From an uncultured Acidobacteriota bacterium (GTDB taxonomy: Bacteria > Acidobacteriota > Thermoanaerobaculia > Multivoradales > UBA5704): a DNA stretch of 64,000 nucleotides. The notes beneath the pieces were generated by a model. It worked only from the letters and a program-made list of their open reading frames with translations. It did no database searches and was not told the DNA's origin. The translations under genes and the position numbers were made by a program. Shown one piece after another: positions 2,760 through 49,474 of this stretch. Within the stretch, counting starts at the first letter, position 1. Every line of letters starts with the position of its first letter. Location of the stretch: contig OY969474.1 in the NCBI GenBank assembly GCA_963700145.1, positions 5,056,001-5,120,000 on the forward strand. Reading direction: 5' to 3'.

Positions 2760-4472
2760 ATGCTCGACAGGAGGCGGTTTCTCACCGGCTCGGCCCTCGG
2801 GCTGGGCGCGGCCGCGCTGCCGGCCTGGGCGAACGGCAACGGCGGCGCGGCGGACCCGGCGGCGATCGCCCGCGGTGACCTGGCGGCGGTGGAGAAGCTG
2901 GCCGGCCTCGCCTTCGCCGACGCCGACCGCGACCTGATGCTCGAGGACGTCGCCGAGCTGCGCGCCGACTACGAGGCGCTGCGCGGCGTCCGGCTCGACA
3001 ACGCCGTCCCCCCCGCGATCCGCTTCGACCCGGCCCTCCCCGGCGCGCCGCCGCCGGCCGGCGCCTCCTCCTTCCGCCTCCTGCCGGCGCCGCCGCCCGT
3101 CCGCCCCGCCGACCCCGAGGCGTTGGCCTTCCTGCCGGCGGTGACGCTAGGGCGGCTGATCGCCTCCGGGCAGATCAGCTCGGTCGAGCTGACGCGCCTC
3201 TACCTCGAGCGCCTGAAGCGCTACGACCCGCTCCTCCTGGCGGTCGTCACCCTGACCGAGGAGCGGGCGCTCGAAGAAGCCGAGCGGATGGACCGCGAGC
3301 TGGCCGAAGGCCGCCCGCGCGGTCCGCTCCACGGCGTCCCCTGGGCTGCGAAGGACCTGCTCGCCGCCCGCGGCTACCCGACGACCTGGGGCGCCGGCCC
3401 GTTCAAGGAGCAGGTGCTCGACTACGACGCCACGGTCGTCGAGCGGCTGGGAAGGGCGGGGGCGGTGCTGGTGGCCAAGACGACGCTCGGCGAGCTGGCC
3501 TGGGGCGACGTCTGGTTCGGCGGCACGACCAAGAACCCCTGGAACCTGGAGCAGGGGTCGAGCGGCTCCTCGGCGGGGTCGGCGGCGACGACCGCGGCCG
3601 GGCTCGTCGGCTTCGCCGTCGGCAGCGAGACGCTGGGCTCGATCGTCTCCCCCTGCACCCGCACCGGCGCCACCGGCCTGCGGCCGACCTTCGGGCGCGT
3701 CCCCCGCCACGGCGCCATGGCGCTCTCCTGGACGATGGACAAGCTGGGGCCGATCTGCCGCAGCGTCGAGGACTGCGCCGCCGTCTTCGCCGCCGTCGCC
3801 GGCCCCGACGGCCGCGACCCGACGGCGACCGACGCGCCGTTCGTCTGGGGCCCGGAGCGCGACCCGCGCCGCCTGCGCGTGGGGTACACGAAGGCGCTCT
3901 TCGAGGCCGAGCCGGAAGAGGAACAGAAAGAGTGGCACGCCTTCGACCTCCAGAGCCTGGAGACGCTGCGCGGCCTCGGCGTCGAGCTCCTGCCCATCGA
4001 GCTGCCGGCGCTGCCGATCCAGGCGATGGGGCTGATCCTCTCGGTCGAGGCGGCCGCCGCCTTCGACGAGCTGACGCGCAGCGGCGCCGACGACCGCCTG
4101 GTGCGCCAGATCCGGCGCGCCTGGCCGAACGTCTTCCGCGTCGCCCGCACCGTGCCGGCGGTCGAGTACGTGCAGGCCAACCGCGTGCGGACGCTGCTGA
4201 TGGAGGAGATGGCGAAGCGCTTCGCCGCCGTGGACCTCTACGTCGCCCCCACCTACGGCGGCGACAACCTCCTGATCACCAACCTCACCGGCCACCCGGC
4301 GGTCGTCCTCCCCAACGGCTTTCGGAAAGACGGCACGCCGACCTCCATCACCTTCACCGGCGGCCTCTGGCTCGAAGCCGACCTCCTGGCCTTCGCCAAG
4401 CTCTACCAGGACGCGACCGACTTCCACCTGCGGCGGCCGCGCCTCGCGCCGCCCGCCCCGGCGCCGGCATGA
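2760..4472 (+). CDS. Amidase-signature family enzyme, Tat-exported
   Basis: RRRFL Tat motif; GPLHGVPWAAKDL, GSSGSSAGS and GSETLGSIVSP motifs. Confidence 0.9.
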   Translation: MLDRRRFLTGSALGLGAAALPAWANGNGGAADPAAIARGDLAAVEKLAGLAFADADRDLMLEDVAELRADYEALRGVRLDNAVPPAIRFDPALPGAPPPAGASSFRLLPAPPPVRPADPEALAFLPAVTLGRLIASGQISSVELTRLYLERLKRYDPLLLAVVTLTEERALEEAERMDRELAEGRPRGPLHGVPWAAKDLLAARGYPTTWGAGPFKEQVLDYDATVVERLGRAGAVLVAKTTLGELAWGDVWFGGTTKNPWNLEQGSSGSSAGSAATTAAGLVGFAVGSETLGSIVSPCTRTGATGLRPTFGRVPRHGAMALSWTMDKLGPICRSVEDCAAVFAAVAGPDGRDPTATDAPFVWGPERDPRRLRVGYTKALFEAEPEEEQKEWHAFDLQSLETLRGLGVELLPIELPALPIQAMGLILSVEAAAAFDELTRSGADDRLVRQIRRAWPNVFRVARTVPAVEYVQANRVRTLLMEEMAKRFAAVDLYVAPTYGGDNLLITNLTGHPAVVLPNGFRKDGTPTSITFTGGLWLEADLLAFAKLYQDATDFHLRRPRLAPPAPAPA

Positions 4473-5401
4473 GCCCGCGCGCCAAGCGCGCGCCCCGCGG
4501 CGGCGGCGAGCTCCTCTTCGGGGTGCACACCGTCGACAACGGCGGCATCGACATGGCGGCCCGGCGCGCAGCCGCCGCCGGCGCCCGCGCGCTGCAGGTG
4601 TTCACCGCGCCGCCGCGCTTCTACGGCGACCGCTCCAACATCCAGGCGGCGCGCGTGGCGCGGTTCCACGCCGCGCTCACCGAGGTCGGCATCGAGCGCC
4701 GGCACGTCATGGTGCACGCCGCCTACGTCCTCAACACCGCCAGCCCCGAAGAGGAGAAGCGGGAGCGCTCGGCGGCCGGCTTGGCGAAGGAGCTGGAGCG
4801 CTCGACGGCGCTGGAGGCCGGGATGGTCTGCTTCCACCCCGGCTCGGCGGGGAGCGGCGGCGACCTCGCGGCGGCGCTCGGCCGGGTGGCGGGGGCGATC
4901 GTCGCCGCCCTGCGCGCCGTCCCGGGTCCGACGCGGCTGCTGGTCGAGAACACCGCCGGCGCCGGGGCCACCGTCGGGCGCACGGCCGCCGAGGTGGCGA
5001 CGATCCTCGCCGTCGTGCCGAAGGCGCTGCGCCCGCGTACCGGCTACGGCCTCGACACCTGCCATCTCTTCGCCTCGGGGTACGACATCCGCCGCTCGCC
5101 CGCCGCGCTCGCCGCTCTCCTCGACGAGTTCGAGGCCGCCACCGGCGAGCCGCCGGCGTTCTTCCACCTCAACGATAGCGAAGGGGACTTGGGGAGCAAC
5201 CGCGACCGCCACACGCTGCTCGGCAAGGGGCGGATCGGCGTCGAGCCGTTCCGCTGGCTGCTCGCCGACCGCCGCGCCCGCGGCGTGCCGCTGATCCTCG
5301 AGACGCCGGAGAAGAACAACGAGGCGGCGGACGACGACCCGTCGCCGGACCCCTGGGACGCCGAGATGTTCGCGCTGCTGCGTGAGCTGGCGCCGGCATA
5401 G
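4469..5401 (+). CDS. nfo: Deoxyribonuclease IV (AP endonuclease)
   Basis: HAAYVLN, FHPGS, LLVENTAG, LDTCHLFASGYD, HLNDS, DRH, ILETP motifs; ATGA overlap with the amidase. Confidence 0.88.
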   Translation: MSPRAKRAPRGGGELLFGVHTVDNGGIDMAARRAAAAGARALQVFTAPPRFYGDRSNIQAARVARFHAALTEVGIERRHVMVHAAYVLNTASPEEEKRERSAAGLAKELERSTALEAGMVCFHPGSAGSGGDLAAALGRVAGAIVAALRAVPGPTRLLVENTAGAGATVGRTAAEVATILAVVPKALRPRTGYGLDTCHLFASGYDIRRSPAALAALLDEFEAATGEPPAFFHLNDSEGDLGSNRDRHTLLGKGRIGVEPFRWLLADRRARGVPLILETPEKNNEAADDDPSPDPWDAEMFALLRELAPA

Positions 5402-42604: not shown

Positions 42605-42830
42605 GAGACGGAGGAGCTTCGGCTGCGCGGCGAGCGGCAGCTCCTCGACGTGGTCGAGCACCAGCGTCCCGCCCGCGGCGCGCGCCACCCGCCCCTCGCT
42701 CGCGCGCTCGGCGCCGGTGAAGGCGCCGGGGCGGTAGCCGAAGAGCTCGCTCTCGAAGAGCGCGCTGGGGAAGGCGCCGGGGTCGACCTCGACGAGCGGC
42801 CCGCCGGCGCGCGGGCCGGCGGCGTGGAGG
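42605..42830 (-). pseudogene. Internal fragment of the sigma54-activator gene (copy of 31733-31958)
   Basis: Near-identical DNA in inverted orientation, encoding LHAAGPRA.GPLVEVDPG...GAFTGA...QPKLLRL. Confidence 0.9.
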
Positions 42831-43218
42831 CCGAGGTGCGTTTCCTGCAGCAGGCGGCGATCGACATCGTCTACTCGCACCACGAGCGCTGGGACGGGGC
42901 GGGTTACCCGCGCGGGCTGGCCGGGTCGGCGATCCCGCTGGCGGCGCGGATCTTCGCGGTGGTGGACACCTACGACGCGATCACCTCGGACCGGCCCTAC
43001 CGCCGGGCGCGCGGGCACGCGGCGGCGGTGGCGGAGCTGCAGCGCGTGGCGGGCACGCAGCTCGACCCCGAGATCGTCGAAGTCTTCGCCCGTCTCCCCG
43101 AAGTCGAGCTCCGCCGCCTCCGCGAGCGCTACCGCCACGTCCACCCCGGCCTCTCCCTGCCTGCCGAACTCTTCGACTCGCTGCTGGAGAGCGGCGTCCG
43201 CAAGCCGATCGCGCGCGA
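42829..43218 (+). pseudogene. 3' fragment of the HD-GYP gene (copy of about 33545-33934)
   Basis: AEVRFLQQAAIDIVYSHHERWDGAGYP...LLESGVR; fused directly to the sigma54 fragment; no start or HD motif. Confidence 0.9.
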
Positions 43219-43238
43219 AGAGAGCTTCGGCGGCAGGT

Positions 43239-43715
43239 CTACGAATCACCACGTCGTTTCTCGAGGTCCCCCGGCGAAGGGCCACCAAAGACCACATCGC
43301 CACCCGCTGCGATGCTGCTATTCGCGGCAGCCACGGCTCGGGTTCCTTGGGCAATGGCGCCATCTCCTTCGAGGTGGGCCCACGATGCGTGCGGACCGGC
43401 CGCCTCGAGCAATCTCGCGATCTCCTCCGCGAAGCTCGGATTGGCGACAAGAAGCTCCTCGACCTGGAGTTCGAGGGCTCCCTGAGCTCGCGGATCCGTG
43501 GGCCGCCGGATCACCTCCTCCACCGCGGCGCGCCCACTCTCCTTCGCCGCCACCTGCGGTTTGAGCCGACCCCAGAGCGCCTTCGCTCCTTCCCACACGC
43601 TCTCGCCCACCTTGTGAGCGATCTCTCCCGCCATCTTCCCTCCCGCCTGCTCGAGGTACGGCAGAAGCGGCACGAGCAGGCCGGTCACTTCACGGGCCAA
43701 CGCTGCGAAGTCCAT
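43239..43715 (-). CDS. Small helical (Bell-like) protein with C-terminal amyloid-like motif
   Basis: AAAGGAG RBS; colinear with the NLR N-terminus; C-terminal LEGDGAIAQGTRAVAAANSSIAAGGDVV. Confidence 0.8.
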   Translation of the reverse strand: MDFAALAREVTGLLVPLLPYLEQAGGKMAGEIAHKVGESVWEGAKALWGRLKPQVAAKESGRAAVEEVIRRPTDPRAQGALELQVEELLVANPSFAEEIARLLEAAGPHASWAHLEGDGAIAQGTRAVAAANSSIAAGGDVVFGGPSPGDLEKRRGDS

Positions 43716-43741
43716 TGCTGTCTCCTTTCTCGCCGACAGTG

Positions 43742-44881
43742 CTATTTCTTGGGAACCAGTCCCACGGTAGTGCCACACCACGGAGGCATCTTGCCGTTGA
43801 CAACGCTGCACATCGGATCACGCGTCAGCCGGCACGAGAAGCCAACCGGGCGATCCTCCAGGCAAAGCATTCGCAGCTCGCAGAAGAGCCGGGGACCGTC
43901 CGGCGGCTGGACCCAGGGAGCGAGCTGGACTCTCTCCTGGAGGACGTGCGGAGTCCCGCTGCGCAGCGCCGCCTCCACGTCTGCCGGGGTCGGGTGCAGG
44001 ACCACTCCGCGTCCCGCGACCTCGTTAGCCGGCTTGAGAACGAAGTCGACCCGTTCCGCCCACTCCCATGCGGTCTCCGCGGTCAGATTGACCGTCTCGG
44101 GCACTAAATCCGACACCTCGCGGAGCCACGGCAAGCTGCGTTTACCTAACATGAAGAACCAGTCGGGGTGCAGAACCCAATCGCGCGGCTGCCTGCAAAA
44201 TGCCTGGAAAACCTCCTCGTGCCCGGTCAGCTCGGTTTCGACAGGCAGGACCCGGGAGTAGATGCGACGCCGGGAGCTGTCGAGCCGCCGCAGCGTATCC
44301 CACGTCAGGTCGACAATCTCGACGTCGGCAATACTCTGCAGGACCAGAAAATCGGTACGCGAGCGCTGCTGGGAAGCGTCGATGTCCACTAGCACCGAAT
44401 CTCCGACGACGGAAATCAGGTGCTCGCAGTACTCCCGCCACGATCGGTAGCTGAGAAACGGCGTGCACCCCTCGACCACTTGCTCAGTGAGGAGGTGGCC
44501 GAACCAAGGCACGACTCCCATGAACGAGGACAGGCCCTGGCATTCGAGCAGTCGAGGAATGAGCTCTCCACCGCCTCCGAGGCCGAGGGCGAAATCGAAC
44601 TGAGACAGAGATGGAATATCGCCCCGTTGGCCACCACCGCGGTATTTTTCGGGTACCCACTTAGCAGCCTCTTTCCGGTAATCATCGCAACGGATACGCG
44701 CGAAGAACGCCGACACAGCGGCAGCGAGCCAACGTGCCAGACGGCGGGAAACGAAGACCGGGCTCGCGGCGAGTGGAAAGGTGATCTCTTCACCAGTGGC
44801 GGTGGCGATCTGGTCGCGGATCCGTTGTACTGCGGCGGCATCGAAGCTGCGATTAAACCGTGCGCGATGGGAGGTGATCAT
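43742..44881 (-). CDS. ATP-grasp-like (circularly permuted / glutathionylspermidine-synthase-like) ligase
   Basis: DF...PRLLECQG, HPDWFF..GK, FVLKP...GRGV, VLQERV, ELRM motifs; ATGA overlap with the NLR stop. Confidence 0.7.
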   Translation of the reverse strand: MITSHRARFNRSFDAAAVQRIRDQIATATGEEITFPLAASPVFVSRRLARWLAAAVSAFFARIRCDDYRKEAAKWVPEKYRGGGQRGDIPSLSQFDFALGLGGGGELIPRLLECQGLSSFMGVVPWFGHLLTEQVVEGCTPFLSYRSWREYCEHLISVVGDSVLVDIDASQQRSRTDFLVLQSIADVEIVDLTWDTLRRLDSSRRRIYSRVLPVETELTGHEEVFQAFCRQPRDWVLHPDWFFMLGKRSLPWLREVSDLVPETVNLTAETAWEWAERVDFVLKPANEVAGRGVVLHPTPADVEAALRSGTPHVLQERVQLAPWVQPPDGPRLFCELRMLCLEDRPVGFSCRLTRDPMCSVVNGKMPPWCGTTVGLVPKK

Positions 44882-47800
44882 GGAGGGTGGTGCAGCATGA
44901 CGCGGAACCCGATCCCTCCGTCCCGCACTCCAGGGTCGTACCAGGAACGGTAAGCGCAGCGGATGTACCGAGGGGTGCGAACATACGAGCCCCCGCGCAC
45001 AATGCGGAACACGGTCGCGGGAGCCTCCAGGTCCTCCCGTCCGTCCGCCAAATCGTAGGGGTACTTGAACGCAATCTCCAGGGGGTCCTCTCCCCAAAGG
45101 CTGCGCGTCCACTCCCACACGTTGCCGGCCATCTCCTCGCAGCCGTAGGGGCTCGCGCCGCCGGGGAAACAGCCGACGGGGCTCGGCCTGCCGATCCCAG
45201 TCAACCCGAAGCTGGCGCGGTCGGCGTCCACCCAGTCTCCCCAAGGATAGATTCTGCCGTCGGTTCCCCGGGCTGCCTTTTCCCATTCCGCCTCTGACGG
45301 CAACGACACCCGCCATTCCCCATCCGCGAGGCGTTGCCAAAAGTCACGTCTCTCGCGATCCAGTGGCTCGCTCAACCGCCGGCCGGCCAGCTCGCGCAGG
45401 CGCTCTCCCAACCATCGGCAGTACGCGAGGGCGTCATACCAGGTGATGTAGACCACCGGCTGGTTCAGCAGGCCCGCGAGGCACTTGCGATTTTCGAGTT
45501 CGTACGCACTCCGCTCCACGAACTCGGCGAACTGCTGCACTGTCACCGGATAGCGTGCGAGGGCGCAGTCGGCGACCTGCACGTAGTGTGGCGCCATCTC
45601 GTCGTCGCAGGCGTCGGCGTCTCGCGCTCTGTCGCTGCCCATCAGAAAGGCCCCCGCGGGCAGCTCGACGAAGCCCAGCGCCGGCTCCCGCGGCAGGTAA
45701 CAAAGCTCCGGGTCGAAGCGGGAATCGCCCAGCCGGGCGAGGCTCGTACCCGCCTGCGCCCGCTCGATGGCAGCGAAACCGAGGCGACCGTCGCGGATGA
45801 GACGGAGGAGGAACCGCTGGATGCGCTCAAGCTTGAGCCGGTTCGGCTCGCTTACGGTCTCCAGGTCGGCCGACTCGGCTAGGAGCTGTCCGGCGAGCTG
45901 GGCTCCCCAGGCGTCCGCCGCACCTGCTGCTCGGTCGTCAGGTTCCCGCCAACAGAGCGCTTCCGCCAGGCTCCATACCGTCGCCGCAGATCGGCGGGCC
46001 TCCTTCGCTCCCGCCAACAGCACGACCTCTCGCCAGCGGTCGTGCTCCGCCCGTCCCAGCCCCGCCACCCGGTCGGGAAATGAATCTCCGGTCAGATGGC
46101 AGGCGGCCAAATATTCCTGGAAGGTGCGGTGGAGGAACGTGTACACCCCCACGCCGCGGGACTCGAGAATCCCGGCCCGGTCGCGCAAGTATTCCACCAG
46201 ACGCTTGGGATTGGCTTCCGGGTTGCGGCTCAAGTGCATTAGCAGCGCCACCAGCCTGCCCTCGTCGATATCTGCCGTGCCGGCGGCCCCCGCCTGCGCC
46301 GTATGGACCTCGTAGGCTAGTTGCTGGAGGGCCCCGCGGACCTTCTCCATACCGGTGTCCAGGAACTCCGTGAGACTCGGGTGGGGCTTCCCGTTTGTGT
46401 CCAGGGTTACGCGCTGCCTCTCCCATGAACTGAGTAGCAGCTCCAGGGCTTCGGCGTAGAGTTCCTCACGCCGCTGCGGCAGTTCGCCCCCACGCGAGGC
46501 GTGAAGGTTGGCCATCAAAGTCAGCAGCAGCGGACGCTCCGCTAGCTCTCGCAACCGGGGATTGCCGAGGATGGACCGTTCGAGCTGCGCGGCCTGCGCC
46601 GACGCATCTTTGGGTACAAGTTGTCCTTTAGCCGCTTGGTGCGCGTACCAGGCGCGAACGAAGCGGCGGATCTGGCCCGTGCCGAAGGGTGCGAGCACGG
46701 CCTCAGAGAATCCCGGCAGACGCCACCTCTGGTTGCGATAGGCATAGGAGCGGCTCGTGAGGAGCACGCGGCATTTGCCGAACCCTTCGACAAAGGCCTC
46801 GACCACCTGGCGGATCTGATCGCGCCGGGTGTCGGCCTCGGGCACCTCGTCGAGGCCGTCGAGCAGCAGGAGACCACCGCGGGTGAGCAGCTCCCGCTTG
46901 AGGAAGGTGCAATATTCACCGAAGCCGGCCTCTCGCAGATCGCGCTCGAGAGCGTCCCAGAGGTCCTGGGCCGTCGCCTTGCGGCCTCGCTCCGGAAGCT
47001 TCGTCGCGAGATGACGCAGCACGACCCGCACTGGCAGGAGAGGACCGTGGTCCCAGGGCTGTCGCTCTCTCTCGGCATGGCCCTGCTCATCCGGCAGCGG
47101 CGCTGTCAACCGTTCCAAGTTAATCCCCGGCAGGCCGAGCACCTCGCCCGCATGGCAGAGGGCGACAAAGCTCACGAACGTGCTCTTGCCGCTGCCTGGC
47201 TCTCCTAGGAGGACAAGGCGCTCATGTCGATTCATTTCCTCGAGAGCGGAGGAAGGACGAGATGCCATCCGGTCTCCCCGCTCGTCGGCGGCGGCGTGCT
47301 CGGCCCGGGTCGACAACGCAGTGTAGACGGCCTCGAGATTCAGCCGAGCTTCGGAATCGGGTGCCGGGGCGGACTCCGCTGCAGCCAGCGAAATGAACCC
47401 GGTCTGCTCCGCTACGCGCCGGAGATAGGCGTCGCGGAGGGCCGCTTCACCGGTGTCGGCCGCTGGCATGCCGCCGATGATCGTCTGATTCTCGATGAGA
47501 TCCCGCCCTGCGGCCCTGCTCAGGCCGCTGGCCACCACATTGCCTTCCCCCTGCGCCAACGCTCCCGAGCCGCGCAGCAGGACGCGGTAGTTCGTATCTC
47601 CCGGAGAGTTCGCAGCGAACAGCTGCGCCATCTCGGCGGCGAGACCCGCGTCGCTATCCAGGATTTTCCGCAGTTCGACCCGCAGCGCCGCCTTGAGATC
47701 CGGATCCTGCGGCGTCACCGAGAGATCCTGCGCCACCTCGACAGCTTGGGGCTTGGCCCCGATCAATGGCCAGAGCCTCGTCCAAAGTCTCTCGCCCTGC

Positions 47801-47937
47801 TGCAGAGTCTCGGTGTCGAATTCGCCGCCCTTCTCCACGCCGACCTTTTTCTCACCCAGCCCCCCCGCGCTCACGAGATCGGGCAGTAGTGGAGCAAGGA
47901 ATTCGGCGAGCGCTCGGGCGAGCTGAGAGGCATCCAT
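44878..47937 (-). CDS. NLR-like STAND NTPase: helical domain + amyloid-like motif + NACHT + FGE-sulfatase (SUMF1) domain
   Basis: LVLLGEPGSGKST, LLLLDGLDEV, PLLL, YTFLHRTFQEYLAA; FLMGS, YPVT..QF, LPSEAEWEKAARG, MAGNVWEW, RGGS, GFRV. Confidence 0.93.
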   Translation of the reverse strand: MDASQLARALAEFLAPLLPDLVSAGGLGEKKVGVEKGGEFDTETLQQGERLWTRLWPLIGAKPQAVEVAQDLSVTPQDPDLKAALRVELRKILDSDAGLAAEMAQLFAANSPGDTNYRVLLRGSGALAQGEGNVVASGLSRAAGRDLIENQTIIGGMPAADTGEAALRDAYLRRVAEQTGFISLAAAESAPAPDSEARLNLEAVYTALSTRAEHAAADERGDRMASRPSSALEEMNRHERLVLLGEPGSGKSTFVSFVALCHAGEVLGLPGINLERLTAPLPDEQGHAERERQPWDHGPLLPVRVVLRHLATKLPERGRKATAQDLWDALERDLREAGFGEYCTFLKRELLTRGGLLLLDGLDEVPEADTRRDQIRQVVEAFVEGFGKCRVLLTSRSYAYRNQRWRLPGFSEAVLAPFGTGQIRRFVRAWYAHQAAKGQLVPKDASAQAAQLERSILGNPRLRELAERPLLLTLMANLHASRGGELPQRREELYAEALELLLSSWERQRVTLDTNGKPHPSLTEFLDTGMEKVRGALQQLAYEVHTAQAGAAGTADIDEGRLVALLMHLSRNPEANPKRLVEYLRDRAGILESRGVGVYTFLHRTFQEYLAACHLTGDSFPDRVAGLGRAEHDRWREVVLLAGAKEARRSAATVWSLAEALCWREPDDRAAGAADAWGAQLAGQLLAESADLETVSEPNRLKLERIQRFLLRLIRDGRLGFAAIERAQAGTSLARLGDSRFDPELCYLPREPALGFVELPAGAFLMGSDRARDADACDDEMAPHYVQVADCALARYPVTVQQFAEFVERSAYELENRKCLAGLLNQPVVYITWYDALAYCRWLGERLRELAGRRLSEPLDRERRDFWQRLADGEWRVSLPSEAEWEKAARGTDGRIYPWGDWVDADRASFGLTGIGRPSPVGCFPGGASPYGCEEMAGNVWEWTRSLWGEDPLEIAFKYPYDLADGREDLEAPATVFRIVRGGSYVRTPRYIRCAYRSWYDPGVRDGGIGFRVMLHHPP

Positions 47938-48029: not shown

Positions 48030-48200
48030 AGAGTCCTCTACTCGGACCTGAGCGCCGAGGAACAGCGGCGGCTGTTCTGGGAGGGAATCAAGAAGTTCAA
48101 TGCGGGGCGGTTCTATCACTGGCACGACGCCTGGGAGGAGATCTGGCGGTCCACGACCCCAGAGCCGCGGGACCTCTTTCAGGGGCTGGTCCAGGAGTGA
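48030..48200 (+). pseudogene. Truncated, diverged DUF309 copy
   Basis: RVLYSDLSAEEQRRLFWEGIKKFNAGRFYHWHDAWEEIWRSTTPEPRDLFQGLVQ aligns to the gene at 32498; TAG immediately upstream and an early TGA. Confidence 0.85.
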
Positions 48201-48318: not shown

Positions 48319-48405
48319 GAGGCGCGAGCCCTCCCGCTCGCCGCCGCGGACGATCGGGGGGCTCGGCGGATCATCCGCGACACCCGGGCGGACCGGCGGA
48401 GCGGC

Positions 48406-48699
48406 CGGGCGGATCGTCCCGGCTGTCGGGAAAGTCGTCCCGGCCGTCCGGAAAGTTATCCGAGCCGCCGGGAAAGCTATCCCGACGGCCGGGAAAGTTA
48501 TCCCGATGGTCGGGAAAGCTATCCCGGCGGCCCGGAAAGCTATCCTGACTGCCAAGAAAGTTATCCCGATTATCGGGAAAGCTTTCCCGATGGTCCAGAA
48601 AGCTATCCCGATCGCCGGAAAAGCTTTCCCGATGGCCGGGAAAGTTATCCCGACGGCTGGGAAAGCTTTCCCGACGGCCGGGAGGGTCTTCCCGAGGTC
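48406..48699. repeat. Tandem array of 21-bp quasi-palindromic repeats (12 good and about 2 degenerate units)
   Basis: Consensus CGGGAAAGYTWTCCCGAYGGY; the GAAAG core recurs every 21 bp from 48430 to 48661. Confidence 0.92.
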
Positions 48700-48709
48700 C
48701 GGGGAGTCC

Positions 48710-49474
48710 CTAGCGGTGCCGCCAGGCCGGGGGGCGCTTGGCGAGGAAGGCGGCGATGCCTTCTTCCATGTCCTCGGTGGCCGTCAGCTCTTCCAAGTAG
48801 ATCCGCTCGGCCTCGGCGAGGGCGGCGTCGAAAGGCCGCTCGCTCCCCGCCCTGACCGCCTTCTTGAGCAGGGGCGCCACGGCGGCACTCCGCTCCAGGA
48901 GGTCGGAGGTCACCCGTGCCAGCGCCGCTTCCAGGTCGTCGCCCGCCCGCCAGGTCACCAATCCCAGCCGTTCCGCCTCATCGCAGTCGAAGGTGCGGCC
49001 GGTGAGGAGGAGCTCCAGCGCCCGCCCTTCGCCCACCCGCCGCGGCAGGAGGGCCGCCGCCACCGGCGGGAAGCAGCCGAGGAGGATCTCGGGCTGGCCG
49101 AAGCGGGCGTCGTCGGTGGCGAGGACCCAGTCGCAGGCGAGGGCCAGCTCGAGGCCGCCGCCGAGGCAGTGGCCCTGGACGGCGGCGAGGGTCGGCGCCG
49201 ACAGGGCGTGGATCGCGCGGATCGCGGCGTGGAAGGCGGGGAGAGCGGCAGCGATCTTGTCGCGGGTGTGGTCCTGGACGGCGACGCCGGCCGAGAACGC
49301 CCGCCCGCCGGCGCCGCGCACGACGACGAGCTGGAGCCCCTCCGCGCGCGCCAGCCCTTCGGCGGCGGCGCGCAGGGCTTCCAGGGTCGGGAGGTCGAGG
49401 ACGTTGAGCGGCGGGCGGTCGAGGGTGAGGGTGGCGACCCGCCCGTCGCGGGCCAGGACGACGCCCTCGCTCAT
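48710..49474 (-). CDS. Enoyl-CoA hydratase/isomerase (dienoyl-CoA hydratase-like)
   Basis: DRPPLNVLD, FSAGV, CLGGGLEL, GQPEILLGCFPP motifs; ATGA overlap. Confidence 0.9.
   Translation of the reverse strand: MSEGVVLARDGRVATLTLDRPPLNVLDLPTLEALRAAAEGLARAEGLQLVVVRGAGGRAFSAGVAVQDHTRDKIAAALPAFHAAIRAIHALSAPTLAAVQGHCLGGGLELALACDWVLATDDARFGQPEILLGCFPPVAAALLPRRVGEGRALELLLTGRTFDCDEAERLGLVTWRAGDDLEAALARVTSDLLERSAAVAPLLKKAVRAGSERPFDAALAEAERIYLEELTATEDMEEGIAAFLAKRPPAWRHR

Follow-up and report, generated by a model that had tools for sequence, protein, structure and literature searches.

Three genes, all on the minus strand, occupy positions 43239-47937 of the window, the 64,000-nucleotide stretch of an uncultured acidobacterial genome (contig OY969474.1) analysed here. 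They encode an NLR of 1019 aa (44878..47937), a circularly permuted ATP-grasp ligase of 379 aa (43742..44881) and a stand-alone Bell-like protein of 158 aa (43239..43715). All three ORFs are full-length, without frameshift or internal stop, and their spacing is as the initial annotation had described it, with the NLR stop codon (TGA, 44880-44878) overlapping the ligase start (ATG, 44881-44879) by 4 nt in the form of an ATGA, and 26 nt separating the ligase stop (TAG, 43744-43742) from the start of the small gene (ATG, 43715-43713). A Shine-Dalgarno-like AAGGAG (43722..43727, minus strand) lies 6 nt 5' of the latter. Terminator-like sites inside the operon number four, compared with 2.7 ± 1.7 in shuffled sequences, and hence are not above chance; given this and the 4-nt overlap, the ligase is probably co-transcribed with its neighbours. 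The three co-directional genes are also, as first noted, of lower GC content than their surroundings (NLR 66.8 %, ligase 62.7 %, small gene 66.9 %), and their GC3 values of 0.78, 0.73 and 0.73, respectively, compare with 0.90-0.99 in most of the flanking housekeeping genes.

The triad resides within a segment of approximately 7.5 kb that is missing at the syntenic site of one same-genus genome; the edges of this island almost coincide with the limits of the triad, and the small-protein family, sought with profile A2, is found in none of the four same-genus genomes. At its 3' end, the small gene borders directly on a chimeric gene fragment of the HD-GYP type (42605..43218, plus strand), recognized by Pfam and by mapping to same-genus genomes. 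The HD_5 match of this fragment covers profile positions 96-170 only, and its halves, 42605-42836 and 42829-43218, fall at different, non-colinear sites in those genomes, so that the fragment marks the edge of the island as the scar of a rearrangement. Upstream of the NLR, a second, short gene fragment (48045..48193, plus strand), which from its translation we take to be 'DUF309-like', matches two same-genus genomes, G002 (82 %) and G003 (74 %), and is inverted relative to the HD pieces. The initial annotation had left room for an already catalogued system; the locus matches none in PADLOC.

The NLR and its small partner

The NLR begins with a Bell-like helical domain (residues 1-110; 47608..47937, minus strand), paralogous to the small protein by BLASTP and matching the small-family profile A2 at E 3.8e-43. 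This domain is followed by a G/A/Q-rich motif (residues ~115-150; 47488..47595, minus strand), a candidate amyloid/beta-solenoid signalling motif that also occurs in the tail of the small protein. Next comes a NACHT NTPase module (residues ~230-515; 46393..47250, minus strand), defined by Pfam NACHT (37.6 bits, compared with a cut-off of 26.7), NPHP3_N and P-loop matches that span residues 230-433, by an NCBIfam EruA-like stretch at residues 348-514, and by intact Walker A (GEPGSGKS, from residue 245) and Walker B (LLLLDGLDE, at residue 356) motifs. The C-terminal sensor is an FGE-sulfatase/C-type-lectin-fold (FGS/CLec) domain (residues 755-1013; 44899..45675, minus strand; Pfam, 166 bits, 1.4e-48), and so the NACHT-FGS architecture proposed at the outset is borne out. 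Over almost its entire length, the protein is 46-51 % identical to NLRs of related genomes, and the last ~40 residues of its sensor correspond to the variable region that diversity-generating retroelements (DGRs) target in those NLRs. A 99.7 % identical NLR (P0015) is located on a separate 18.8-kb contig, and this gene is thus maintained beyond a single assembly.

The small protein consists of a six-helix domain (residues 3-105) and a disordered G/A/Q-rich tail (residues 106-158), as judged from its translation and an AF2 model that has a pLDDT >90 for most of residues 1-100 and low confidence in the tail. Its suspected colinearity with the first ~150 residues of the NLR is far beyond chance, amounting to 34 % identity over 149 residues when aligned with NLR residues 1-148 (BLASTP, E 1e-18); the two are the sole copies in the 5.46-Mb genome. 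Between small-protein residues 113-142 and the NLR motif, 14 of 30 positions (47 %) are identical. The small protein is covered by no Pfam family, its model found no counterpart among solved structures (Foldseek best E 1.0; VIA best Z 5.2), and a Pfam EAD model is touched by just one of 40 family members (EAD10, E 7e-6). The family itself is large, comprising 1056 representative clusters at E<=0.001. Among the best 150 of these, 124 are shorter than 200 aa and five are 774-1041 aa in length, the long members being, by Pfam, NACHT-FGS proteins (P0027, P0104 and P0114) or NB-ARC-TPR proteins (P0145 and P0150). The family occurs either stand-alone or N-terminally fused to NACHT or NB-ARC NLRs. 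Of 40 aligned members, 33 have aspartate or glutamate as their second or third residue, ahead of a hydrophobic helix, and the window protein, whose nearest relatives are P0016 (64 %) and a G062 protein (59 %), keeps the conserved columns.

The ATP-grasp ligase

The ligase has no match in Pfam, NCBIfam or PADLOC, and its assignment to the ATP-grasp enzymes, which the initial annotation had made, is confirmed by fold. For its AF2 model (pLDDT 73.5), the top Foldseek matches in the PDB are human and yeast glutathione synthetase, Escherichia coli YgiC/YjfC, GspS, 3n6x and Cp1B (E 7e-13 to 1e-10, probability 1.00, TMq 0.45-0.56), with sequence identity to solved structures being only 10-16 %. The correct length of the ORF is 379 aa, although the database copy (P0004) was called at only 259 aa; nine of ten homologs align across all 379 residues. 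The family is rare (11 matches among 5.8 billion clusters). The window copy keeps all 73 invariant columns of the family alignment. The lysine of V-L-K-P and the glutamine of L-Q-E, which we presume to serve in ATP binding, are conserved. The window copy sits on a long branch, carries 10 of the 57 single-deviant columns, and has glycine in place of an asparagine that does not vary among 10 orthologs and nine paralogs. Its catalytic competence is uncertain.

Close orthologs occur in two of 200 relatives (G089 and G130), and a scan of 185,579 species genomes returned the same two loci. These provide the genomic context for two of the ten other homologs, the remaining eight being metagenome proteins (P0006-P0014). 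At both loci, the ligase is accompanied by an NRPS C-A-T-TE module, a PGM1-like pre-ATP-grasp protein, a Lys/Orn N-monooxygenase and a CP-ATP-grasp-like partner of 469/476 aa (40 % identity), and neither locus contains an NLR or a small gene. This context fits small-molecule amide-bond formation.

Related loci and the retroelement slot

Of 201 genomes, 49 have a match to profile A2, and clusters of an NLR and a small gene are common in this acidobacterial family, where the sensor is hypermutated by a DGR that lies between the two. The initial annotation had not recognized the arrangement of a receptor with its own helical domain; yet approximately 20 such all-in-one NLRs exist in related genomes, and all-in-one Bell-NLR homologues figure in Dyrka et al. 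(bioRxiv 10.1101/2020.01.06.895854). Among seven related loci, all contain an all-in-one NLR, which in six stands beside a stand-alone small gene, and in four an NLR with the motif alone at its N-terminus adjoins the small gene. Such motif-only NLRs, which often come after the small gene as a second NLR, gave seven matches among the related genomes and recur in many of 28 metagenome loci that have a small-family gene.

In relatives, the slot that separates NLR from small gene either is empty or, in at least seven genomes, holds a DGR (a reverse transcriptase [RT] and a template repeat). An RT occupies this position in four of the seven loci (Pfam RVT_1, E 2e-13 to 1.4e-17). In a further three genomes, G080, G069 and G083, the coordinates likewise place an RT upstream of the small gene, at a distance of 157-178 nt; that of G083 is decayed. 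In G062, whose small protein is 59 % identical to that of the window, the order is NLR-avd-TR-RT-small-NLR2. The related FGS domains carry variable/template repeat (VR/TR) pairs, in which the mismatched positions coincide with adenines of the template (14/14, 15/18, 16/18 and 14/14). The ligase of the window occupies the slot that avd-TR-RT holds in relatives. The two metagenome loci with the small gene closest to that of the window (55 %) show an NLR-FGS ending directly before it, with no gene between. The window's own genome yielded neither a DGR RT nor a second copy of the 3' end of the NLR gene that could act as a template, and hence the window NLR is not being diversified; no remnant of an RT or of a second NLR was found within the window.

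The proposal that an enzyme is wired between receptor and partner is not upheld by these loci. A ligase-family HMM gave no match in the seven related NLR/small-gene loci or in the 28 metagenome loci, and in none of 48 other related genomes with the small family does a ligase match lie, by coordinates, near a small-family match. Since the triad is conserved nowhere else in the data searched, and both ligase orthologs lie in NRPS clusters, the reading of a new three-part system is not supported. Among the genomes and loci searched, we infer that the ligase at this locus is a one-off, lineage-specific insertion.

Relationship to known systems

The closest likeness is to the Bell/BASS pairs, as Dyrka et al. 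describe them (bioRxiv 10.1101/2020.01.06.895854): a ~100-aa all-helical domain that has an acidic residue at position 2 and begins with a hydrophobic helix, and a short C-terminal motif of the small protein that recurs at the N-terminus of the adjacent NLR. The 47 % motif identity of the window pair falls inside the 43-56 % given there for cross-seeding BASS pairs, and the classical two-gene form (small protein plus motif-only NLR) is present in relatives. In the window, however, the motif (reading G-x-G-A-I-A-Q-G...) sits behind a full helical domain, a motif-only NLR was not found, the sensor is FGE-sulfatase/CLec rather than TPR or WD repeats, and a ligase gene lies between the partners.

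With its central NACHT and C-terminal FGS/CLec, the NLR also resembles the DGR-diversified NACHT/STAND-CLec 'antigen sensor' loci (Dore et al. 2024, PNAS, PMC10907252; for FGS domains, Kaur et al. 2020, eLife, PMC7159879). The homologous NLRs of related genomes are genuine targets of DGRs, having adenine-directed VR/TR mismatches and an adjacent RT, whereas the window's genome lacks both RT and template repeat. A small helical domain shared by an NTPase N-terminus and an adjacent product recalls the EADs of NTP-dependent conflict systems, which are proposed to couple the two by homotypic contact (Kaur et al. 2020, PMC7159879); EADs, however, act as adaptors and are joined to a distinct effector enzyme, and the stand-alone protein of this locus contains no further domain. 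Finally, the ligase shares its fold (probability 1.00) with circularly permuted ATP-grasp amide ligases, i.e. eukaryote-type glutathione synthetase, GspS/YgiC/YjfC, 3n6x and the E-64 ligase Cp1B, and differs from them in its lack of a Pfam or NCBIfam match, its low identity and its small family of 11 clusters, within which it alone is without the asparagine kept in every other member examined.

Interpretation

Pairs of an NLR and a small Bell-like partner form a widespread bacterial family, of which the NLR and the small gene of this locus are an unexceptional example. We consider it reasonably probable that the locus is a Bell/BASS-type NLR module for cell death or defence in which the retroelement has been lost and a ligase has been acquired as a passenger. 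The helical domain of ~105 aa, the acidic position 2, the hydrophobic first helix and the shared G/A/Q-rich tail fit this reading, and to that extent the earlier suggestion of a defence or programmed-death circuit is supported; its ligation step, lacking a conserved triad, is not. By this mechanism, binding of a ligand by the FGS sensor would lead the NACHT module to oligomerize, bringing the N-terminal domains and motifs together; the NLR motif would then template the matching tail of the stand-alone protein, and the freed Bell-like helical domains would attack the membrane, such that the infected or non-self cell dies.

That the locus is instead an inactive, decaying remnant of a rearrangement which removed the retroelement and a second NLR seems unlikely. 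The flanking gene fragments and rearranged copies, the missing DGR RT and template repeat, and the long branch and deviant columns of the ligase agree with decay, and the decayed RT beside the small gene in G083 indicates that NLR/small-gene clusters do erode. Nevertheless, the three ORFs are full-length, the NLR Walker motifs are intact, the small protein retains its family's conserved columns, and the near-identical P0015 exists on another contig. We regard as slightly less likely still a single three-gene system in which the ATP-grasp enzyme replaces the retroelement as an accessory of the pair and catalyses a ligation; its target could be the Bell-like tail or the NLR, or it could produce a small amide by which the response is gated or executed. 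The 4-nt overlap, the 26-nt gap with its good Shine-Dalgarno sequence, the absence of terminator-like sites above chance, a full-length ligase ORF with the family's invariant residues, and the similar low GC3 of all three genes within island edges near the triad argue for such a system, and the longer ligase branch could reflect a new function. Against it, the arrangement is a singleton, with the ligase lacking an NLR or small gene in both ortholog loci and being absent from the related and metagenome loci; its conserved partners are biosynthetic (NRPS module, second ATP-grasp-like protein, N-monooxygenase); the invariant asparagine has become glycine; no fused long forms were found, although this is weak evidence; and a literature search found no link between ATP-grasp enzymes and NACHT anti-phage defence.

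A further alternative concerns the small protein, which could be a regulator or decoy that caps or buffers the NLR N-terminal domains against accidental firing, much as, by analogy, domain-only inhibitors may do for death-fold assemblies. Because the NLR has its own helical domain, a separate effector is not strictly needed, and the window's genome yielded no motif-only second NLR of the kind with which the small gene is paired in relatives. This role is nonetheless quite improbable, as the small protein most often pairs with a motif-only NLR in relatives and metagenomes, which is the Bell/BASS receptor/effector layout, and a Bell-related protein acts as the death effector in the Bab/Agp antiphage system, according to Ibarlosa et al. 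2024 (bioRxiv 10.1101/2024.11.07.622273).

One set of observations sits uneasily with the view of the ligase as a passenger: its ORF is intact and retains the invariant columns of its family, the 4-nt overlap couples its translation to that of the NLR, and its GC3 is reduced like that of both neighbours. On these grounds, the three genes may have arrived together as one unit, an outcome that is not predicted for a purely accidental passenger.

Organization of the locus

In a genome that consists of a single, high-GC contig of 5.46 Mb, the triad lies on the minus strand and comprises an NLR gene (44878-47937, an ORF of 1019 aa), an ATP-grasp ligase gene (43742-44881, 379 aa) and a small Bell-like gene (43239-43715, 158 aa). 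The account of three co-directional, lower-GC genes in the initial annotation is confirmed; the genes run head to tail, the ligase ATG overlaps the NLR TGA (ATGA, 44881-44878), and the small gene, with AAGGAG upstream, starts after a gap of 26 nt past the ligase stop. GC3 is 0.78 for the NLR gene and 0.73 for both the ligase and the small gene, versus 0.90-0.99 for most neighbouring housekeeping genes, the reference set being the enoyl-CoA hydratases, MscS, thiolase and aldehyde dehydrogenase that flank the triad.

The NLR is tripartite, with a Bell-like domain (residues 1-150), a NACHT region (~230-515; PF05729 at 37.6 bits, cut-off 26.7) and an FGE-sulfatase domain (755-1013; 166 bits, Pfam). 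Its Walker A (GEPGSGKS at residue 245, pattern GxxxxGK[ST]) and Walker B (LLLLDGLDE at residue 356, pattern hhhhDGhDE) motifs are intact, and by profile, motifs and architecture the protein is a NACHT-type STAND NTPase. The NCBIfam antiphage NACHT models fall far under cut-off on the NLR (EruA, 33.5 bits vs 1000). The comparison with PADLOC proposed in the initial annotation placed none of the triad proteins in a catalogued defence system: PADLOC-DB 2.0 has no significant model for any of them, the best E-values for the NLR being 0.014 and 0.029, and the other two proteins giving no match. When the NLR N-terminal region was queried among proteins of 560-1784 aa, the sole match was a near-identical database protein (P0015).

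The Bell-like domain

The proposed colinearity of the small protein with the first ~150 aa of the NLR holds, in that the small protein aligns to NLR residues 1-148 with 34% identity (BLASTP, E 1e-18), and the two are true paralogs; they are also the only two copies of the domain in the genome. An exhaustive HMMER search of representative proteins recovered 1056 family members at E<=0.001, 254 of them at E<=1e-10. Among the best 150, 124 are shorter than 200 aa, and five proteins of 774-1041 aa begin with the same domain, followed in Pfam terms by NACHT-FGE-sulfatase (P0027, P0104 and P0114) or NB-ARC-TPR (P0145 and P0150). The family alignment consists of a conserved part of ~105 residues and then a G/A/V/Q-rich tail with a G-x-G-A-I-A-Q-G core; in an AF2 model built from 40 sequences, helices span residues 3-22, 28-36, 38-55, 59-70, 75-91 and 93-105, with pLDDT mostly >90 across residues 3-105, and the tail is unstructured and of low confidence.

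Several of these features recall the Bell domains described in passages of Dyrka et al. (bioRxiv 10.1101/2020.01.06.895854), where an early acidic residue and a hydrophobic N-terminal helix serve as the criterion. An aspartate or glutamate stands at position 2 or 3 in 33 of the 40 family members, with a hydrophobic helix next, and both window copies begin with MD and hydrophobic residues. The tail of the small protein shares 14 of 30 residues with NLR residues 119-148, a motif identity within the 43-56% range that passages of the same study give for cross-seeding BASS pairs. Additionally, as in the criterion of motif-sharing neighbours for Bell/BASS pairs, NLRs with motif-only N-termini (a short G/A/Q-rich motif alone) adjoin small genes in relatives and metagenomes. 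The YadA_head beta-roll repeat is weakly matched by 14 of the 40 tails (best E 5e-4). The small-protein model found no convincing fold in the PDB (Foldseek, best E 1.0), its best VIA-align wide match (Z 5.2) lay amid helical-bundle noise, the family profile against PDB sequences gave nothing below E 0.37, and Pfam, NCBIfam and PADLOC yielded chance-level matches at most. The name 'Bell-like' is preferred to 'Bell', since the model is without a solved-structure match and the shared features, not the founding Bell sequences, formed the basis of comparison. Assignment to EAD10 or HetE-N, the latter an ESM Atlas lead with a share of 15%, was dropped because each model is touched by just one of the 40 members.

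Related clusters and the retroelement slot

The small-family profile is positive in 49 of 201 related genomes and in none of four from the same genus. In all seven related NLR/small loci that were fetched there is an all-in-one NLR, i.e. one with its own Bell-like domain and motif ahead of NACHT and FGE-sulfatase (FGS), and its NACHT region is 30-56% identical to that of the window. In six of the seven a stand-alone small gene follows this NLR after a gap, and in four a motif-only NLR adjoins the small gene. Four of the seven have a reverse transcriptase (RT; RVT_1) as the gap gene, and the NLR 3' end is partly duplicated ahead of it. The mismatches between variable region (VR) and template repeat (TR) fall at template adenines in 14/14, 15/18, 16/18 and 14/14 cases in these four loci, and such adenine-biased copies are the signature of a diversity-generating retroelement (DGR). 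In three further genomes, coordinates place an RT 157-178 nt upstream of a small gene, and an RT profile is positive in 86 of the 201 genomes overall. The gap is filled differently elsewhere, with the small gene directly after the NLR in one genome (G037) and a second NLR between first NLR and small gene in another (G012). In one of the three genomes with an RT placed by coordinates, at G083:C31:37394-38129, the DGR RT beside the small-family gene is split and interrupted by stop codons, an instance of retroelement decay inside such a cluster.

The small protein most similar to that of the window (59%) belongs to the related genome G062, in a cluster ordered NLR-avd-TR-RT-small-NLR2, where avd is presumed from a reading of the sequence. 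Nearly the whole window NLR can be aligned with the first NLR of the relatives' NLR/DGR/small clusters, at 46-51% identity. Since the small protein and the NLR of the window thus match G062-type clusters and their first NLR, the ligase occupies exactly the place that the retroelement takes in the relatives. The RT profile finds no DGR-type RT in the genome or the window, the 191 nt at the NLR 3' end have no template copy in the genome (next-best match, 17 nt), and the window holds no remnants of an RT or a second NLR; the absence of avd from the window is read solely from the lack of RT and TR. The space between receptor and partner can be viewed as a plastic 'accessory slot', filled by a DGR in many relatives, by nothing in others and by the ligase here.

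Clusters made up of an all-in-one NLR, avd-TR-RT, a small gene and a motif-only NLR occur at four fetched loci, namely L048 (G028:C107), L049 (G134:C4), L050 (G062:C106) and L051 (G165:C26), in which DGR-hypermutated NLR sensors are apparently wired to Bell/BASS-like partners. In L050 (4192-4314 vs 4858-4978) the first NLR has a VR that exceeds the TR by 2 nt, so that the NLR frame stops at 4291, before the VR end; the target may be frameshifted, or the difference may have arisen during assembly of a heterogeneous VR. NACHT-FGS/CLec proteins figure as DGR targets in passages of Kaur et al. 2020 (PMC7159879) and Dore et al. 2024 (PMC10907252), the latter also mentioning N-terminal extensions without characterized domains, and 'all-in-one' Bell-NLR homologues are mentioned in the text of Dyrka et al. 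(bioRxiv 10.1101/2020.01.06.895854). A search of the open literature gave no description of DGR-hypermutated NLR sensors combined with Bell-like partners; the papers that pair DGR, NLR and 'amyloid' use the last word once each, and the supplementary tables of Dyrka et al. and Dore et al. may already list members of the family.

Search for a second triad

The search for the same triad in other genomes, which had been proposed along with the three-part system, recovered no second example in relatives, in the species scan or in metagenomes. The ligase HMM has no match in the seven fetched loci. In the other 48 genomes with a small-family match, no ligase-family match lies near it, the closest pair by coordinates being ~48 kb apart (G028). 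Likewise, no ligase match came from the 28 metagenome loci that carry a small-family gene; their commonest layout is a small gene followed at once by a motif-only NACHT-FGS NLR, and the two small genes nearest that of the window (55%) each have an NLR-FGS gene ending immediately ahead.

The ligase and its family

Curated models do not name the ligase, as there are no Pfam families at E<=1 (including CP_ATPgrasp_1/2, GSP_synth and GSH_synth_ATP), only chance-level NCBIfam matches and none in PADLOC. A model built from the family alignment (pLDDT 73.5) matched 67 PDB chains at E<=0.001 in Foldseek, the top ones (8fbz, 7uk8, 3n6x, 1m0w and 9cjn) at probability 1.00. The fold matches include human and yeast glutathione synthetase, E. 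coli YgiC/YjfC, GspS, 3n6x and Cp1B, the last of which belongs to the amide-forming pathway of E-64 according to part of PMC12568646. ESM Atlas leads also point to 'circularly permuted type 2 ATP-grasp' or GSP_synth (15%). The middle protein is therefore predicted, from its match to circularly permuted ATP-grasp ligases, to have a glutathione synthetase/GspS-like, circularly permuted ATP-grasp fold, and the label 'ATP-grasp ligase' is right as a fold assignment.

The family is rare, a word-indexed search of 5.8 billion clusters returning 11 relatives with the window's own gene included. An initial metagenome scan based on the ligase alignment recovered no relative, and longer fused forms were likewise not found, which is weak evidence. 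A database copy of the ligase (P0004) has 259 aa and begins at Met121; the start that overlaps the NLR stop is nonetheless the real one, as shown by homologs that align across all 379 residues. Another database protein, P0014 (262 aa), may be shortened like P0004.

The window ligase is full-length, keeps every invariant column of the family alignment and retains K283 (VLKP), Q315, R337 and R351. At column 363, all 10 orthologs and all nine paralogs examined have Asn, while the window copy has Gly with Asn one position earlier; it is also the deviant in 10 of the 57 columns that have exactly one deviant sequence. A FastTree phylogeny with the paralogs as root places the window copy as sister to the G089-type ligase, with a root-to-tip distance of 0.78 vs 0.50-0.55 for the rest of its clade (three members), a long branch that fits either relaxed constraint or a new function. 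A complex prediction for the ligase and the small protein scored 0.00 in a run without controls and counts neither way on binding.

A pattern scan covering 185,579 species, each represented by one genome, identified orthologs at two loci, with 66% and 50% identity, and a profile search of 200 relatives returned the same two and no further close ortholog. One (L001) is in G089, of the same family, and the other (L002) in G130, of the same order; neither contains an NLR or small-family gene (tblastn; profile). Both have a CP-ATP-grasp-like partner (469/476 aa, 40% identity). A C-A-T-TE NRPS module is present in L002, with homologous stretches in L001; a PGM1-like pre-ATP-grasp protein accompanies the L001 ligase, and a Lys/Orn N-monooxygenase lies directly downstream in L002. 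Over L001 5083-9140 and L002 62-10498 there are NRPS modules together with up to three ATP-grasp-type ligases, and these acidobacterial clusters are candidates for hybrid NRPS/ATP-grasp pathways to peptides or siderophores. Within the bacterial family, 86 of 91 genomes also encode a remoter paralog (29% identity). In the window's genome it lies at C1:1834572-1835741 (L015 8567-9769) and adjoins a GCS2-type carboxylate-amine ligase, and synteny there and in G046 extends to an unannotated protein of ~380 aa; further paralog contexts were drawn from L016 and L017. This uncharacterized two-ligase operon is apparently of a housekeeping nature, and its product is possibly a gamma-glutamyl peptide or thiol. 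Because of these NRPS, ATP-grasp and carboxylate-amine ligase neighbours, the family looks like one of small-molecule or peptide amide ligases of metabolism.

Genomic setting

In G004, a genome of the same genus, ~770 bp separate the MscS gene from a downstream stretch that is homologous to the window from 48309 onward, and for this reason about 7.5 kb (about 40.8-48.3 kb) is specific to the window's lineage, a size that is stated approximately because the flanks are rearranged relative to same-genus genomes. The segment holds the triad between gene fragments, with two HD-GYP-type pieces (42605-43218), whose joined order is absent from three same-genus genomes, on one side, and a short conserved fragment (48045-48193) upstream of the NLR. 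The boundaries of the foreign-looking part almost match those of the triad, and this fit together with the common low GC3 is the best argument that the three genes arrived together. A long ORF (42650-43564) that extends antisense into the small gene is probably not genuine as a full-length gene.

Just downstream of an enoyl-CoA hydratase gene, and ~440 nt upstream of the NLR start, is a tandem array (48375-48725) of ~13-16 copies of a 21-nt unit, each palindromic (TCCCG-N5-CGGGA overlapping GGGAAA-GC-TTTCCC). The array is kept at the syntenic site of G004, which has similar arrays elsewhere (C41 and C58), and Rfam assigns it to no family; across the whole window, Rfam identifies two tRNAs only.

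Implications for NLR signalling

The initial annotation proposed a new three-part immune system. Its NLR/Bell-like pair is supported, as a module of known kind, the locus belonging to the classes of Bell/BASS-type NLR modules and NACHT-FGS sensors. A new system that includes the ligase is unsupported, given that the arrangement occurs once and that the ligase family has its home in other contexts; the ligase is an insertion seen in one genome only. A literature search found no link between ATP-grasp and NACHT in anti-phage defence, and among the top-ranked matches, judged by their listings, no ATP-grasp operon with STAND or conflict-system effectors. It is improbable that an ATP-grasp ligase of secondary metabolism was captured into the slot, replaced the DGR and gained a role in the circuit, and the slight chance left to a three-component reading is owed to the island edges and shared low GC3, which favour joint arrival. 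A captured ligase might add residues to the Bell-like or NLR tail and so set the firing threshold, or might instead make a small amide product upon activation. If that were true, it would be the first enzymatic ligation coupled to prokaryotic NLR/amyloid-type signalling, and a functional ligase would give NLR signalling an additional step, post-translational or metabolite-based.

For the receptor-partner pair itself, a course of events can be proposed by analogy at every step with Bell/BASS and with Bab/Agp, in which, as part of a preprint describes (bioRxiv 10.1101/2024.11.07.622273), a Bell-related protein is an amyloid-activated death effector in phage defence. A ligand would be sensed by the FGS/CLec domain, the NACHT module would oligomerize, the clustered N-terminal motifs would template the tail of the stand-alone protein, and the helical domains would attack the membrane. 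The remaining interest of the locus is mostly evolutionary, residing in the plasticity of the slot and the linkage, in this acidobacterial family, of DGR-diversified sensors to Bell-like partners, and DGR/NLR/Bell-like clusters of the L048-L051 type may merit more attention than the locus of the window itself.
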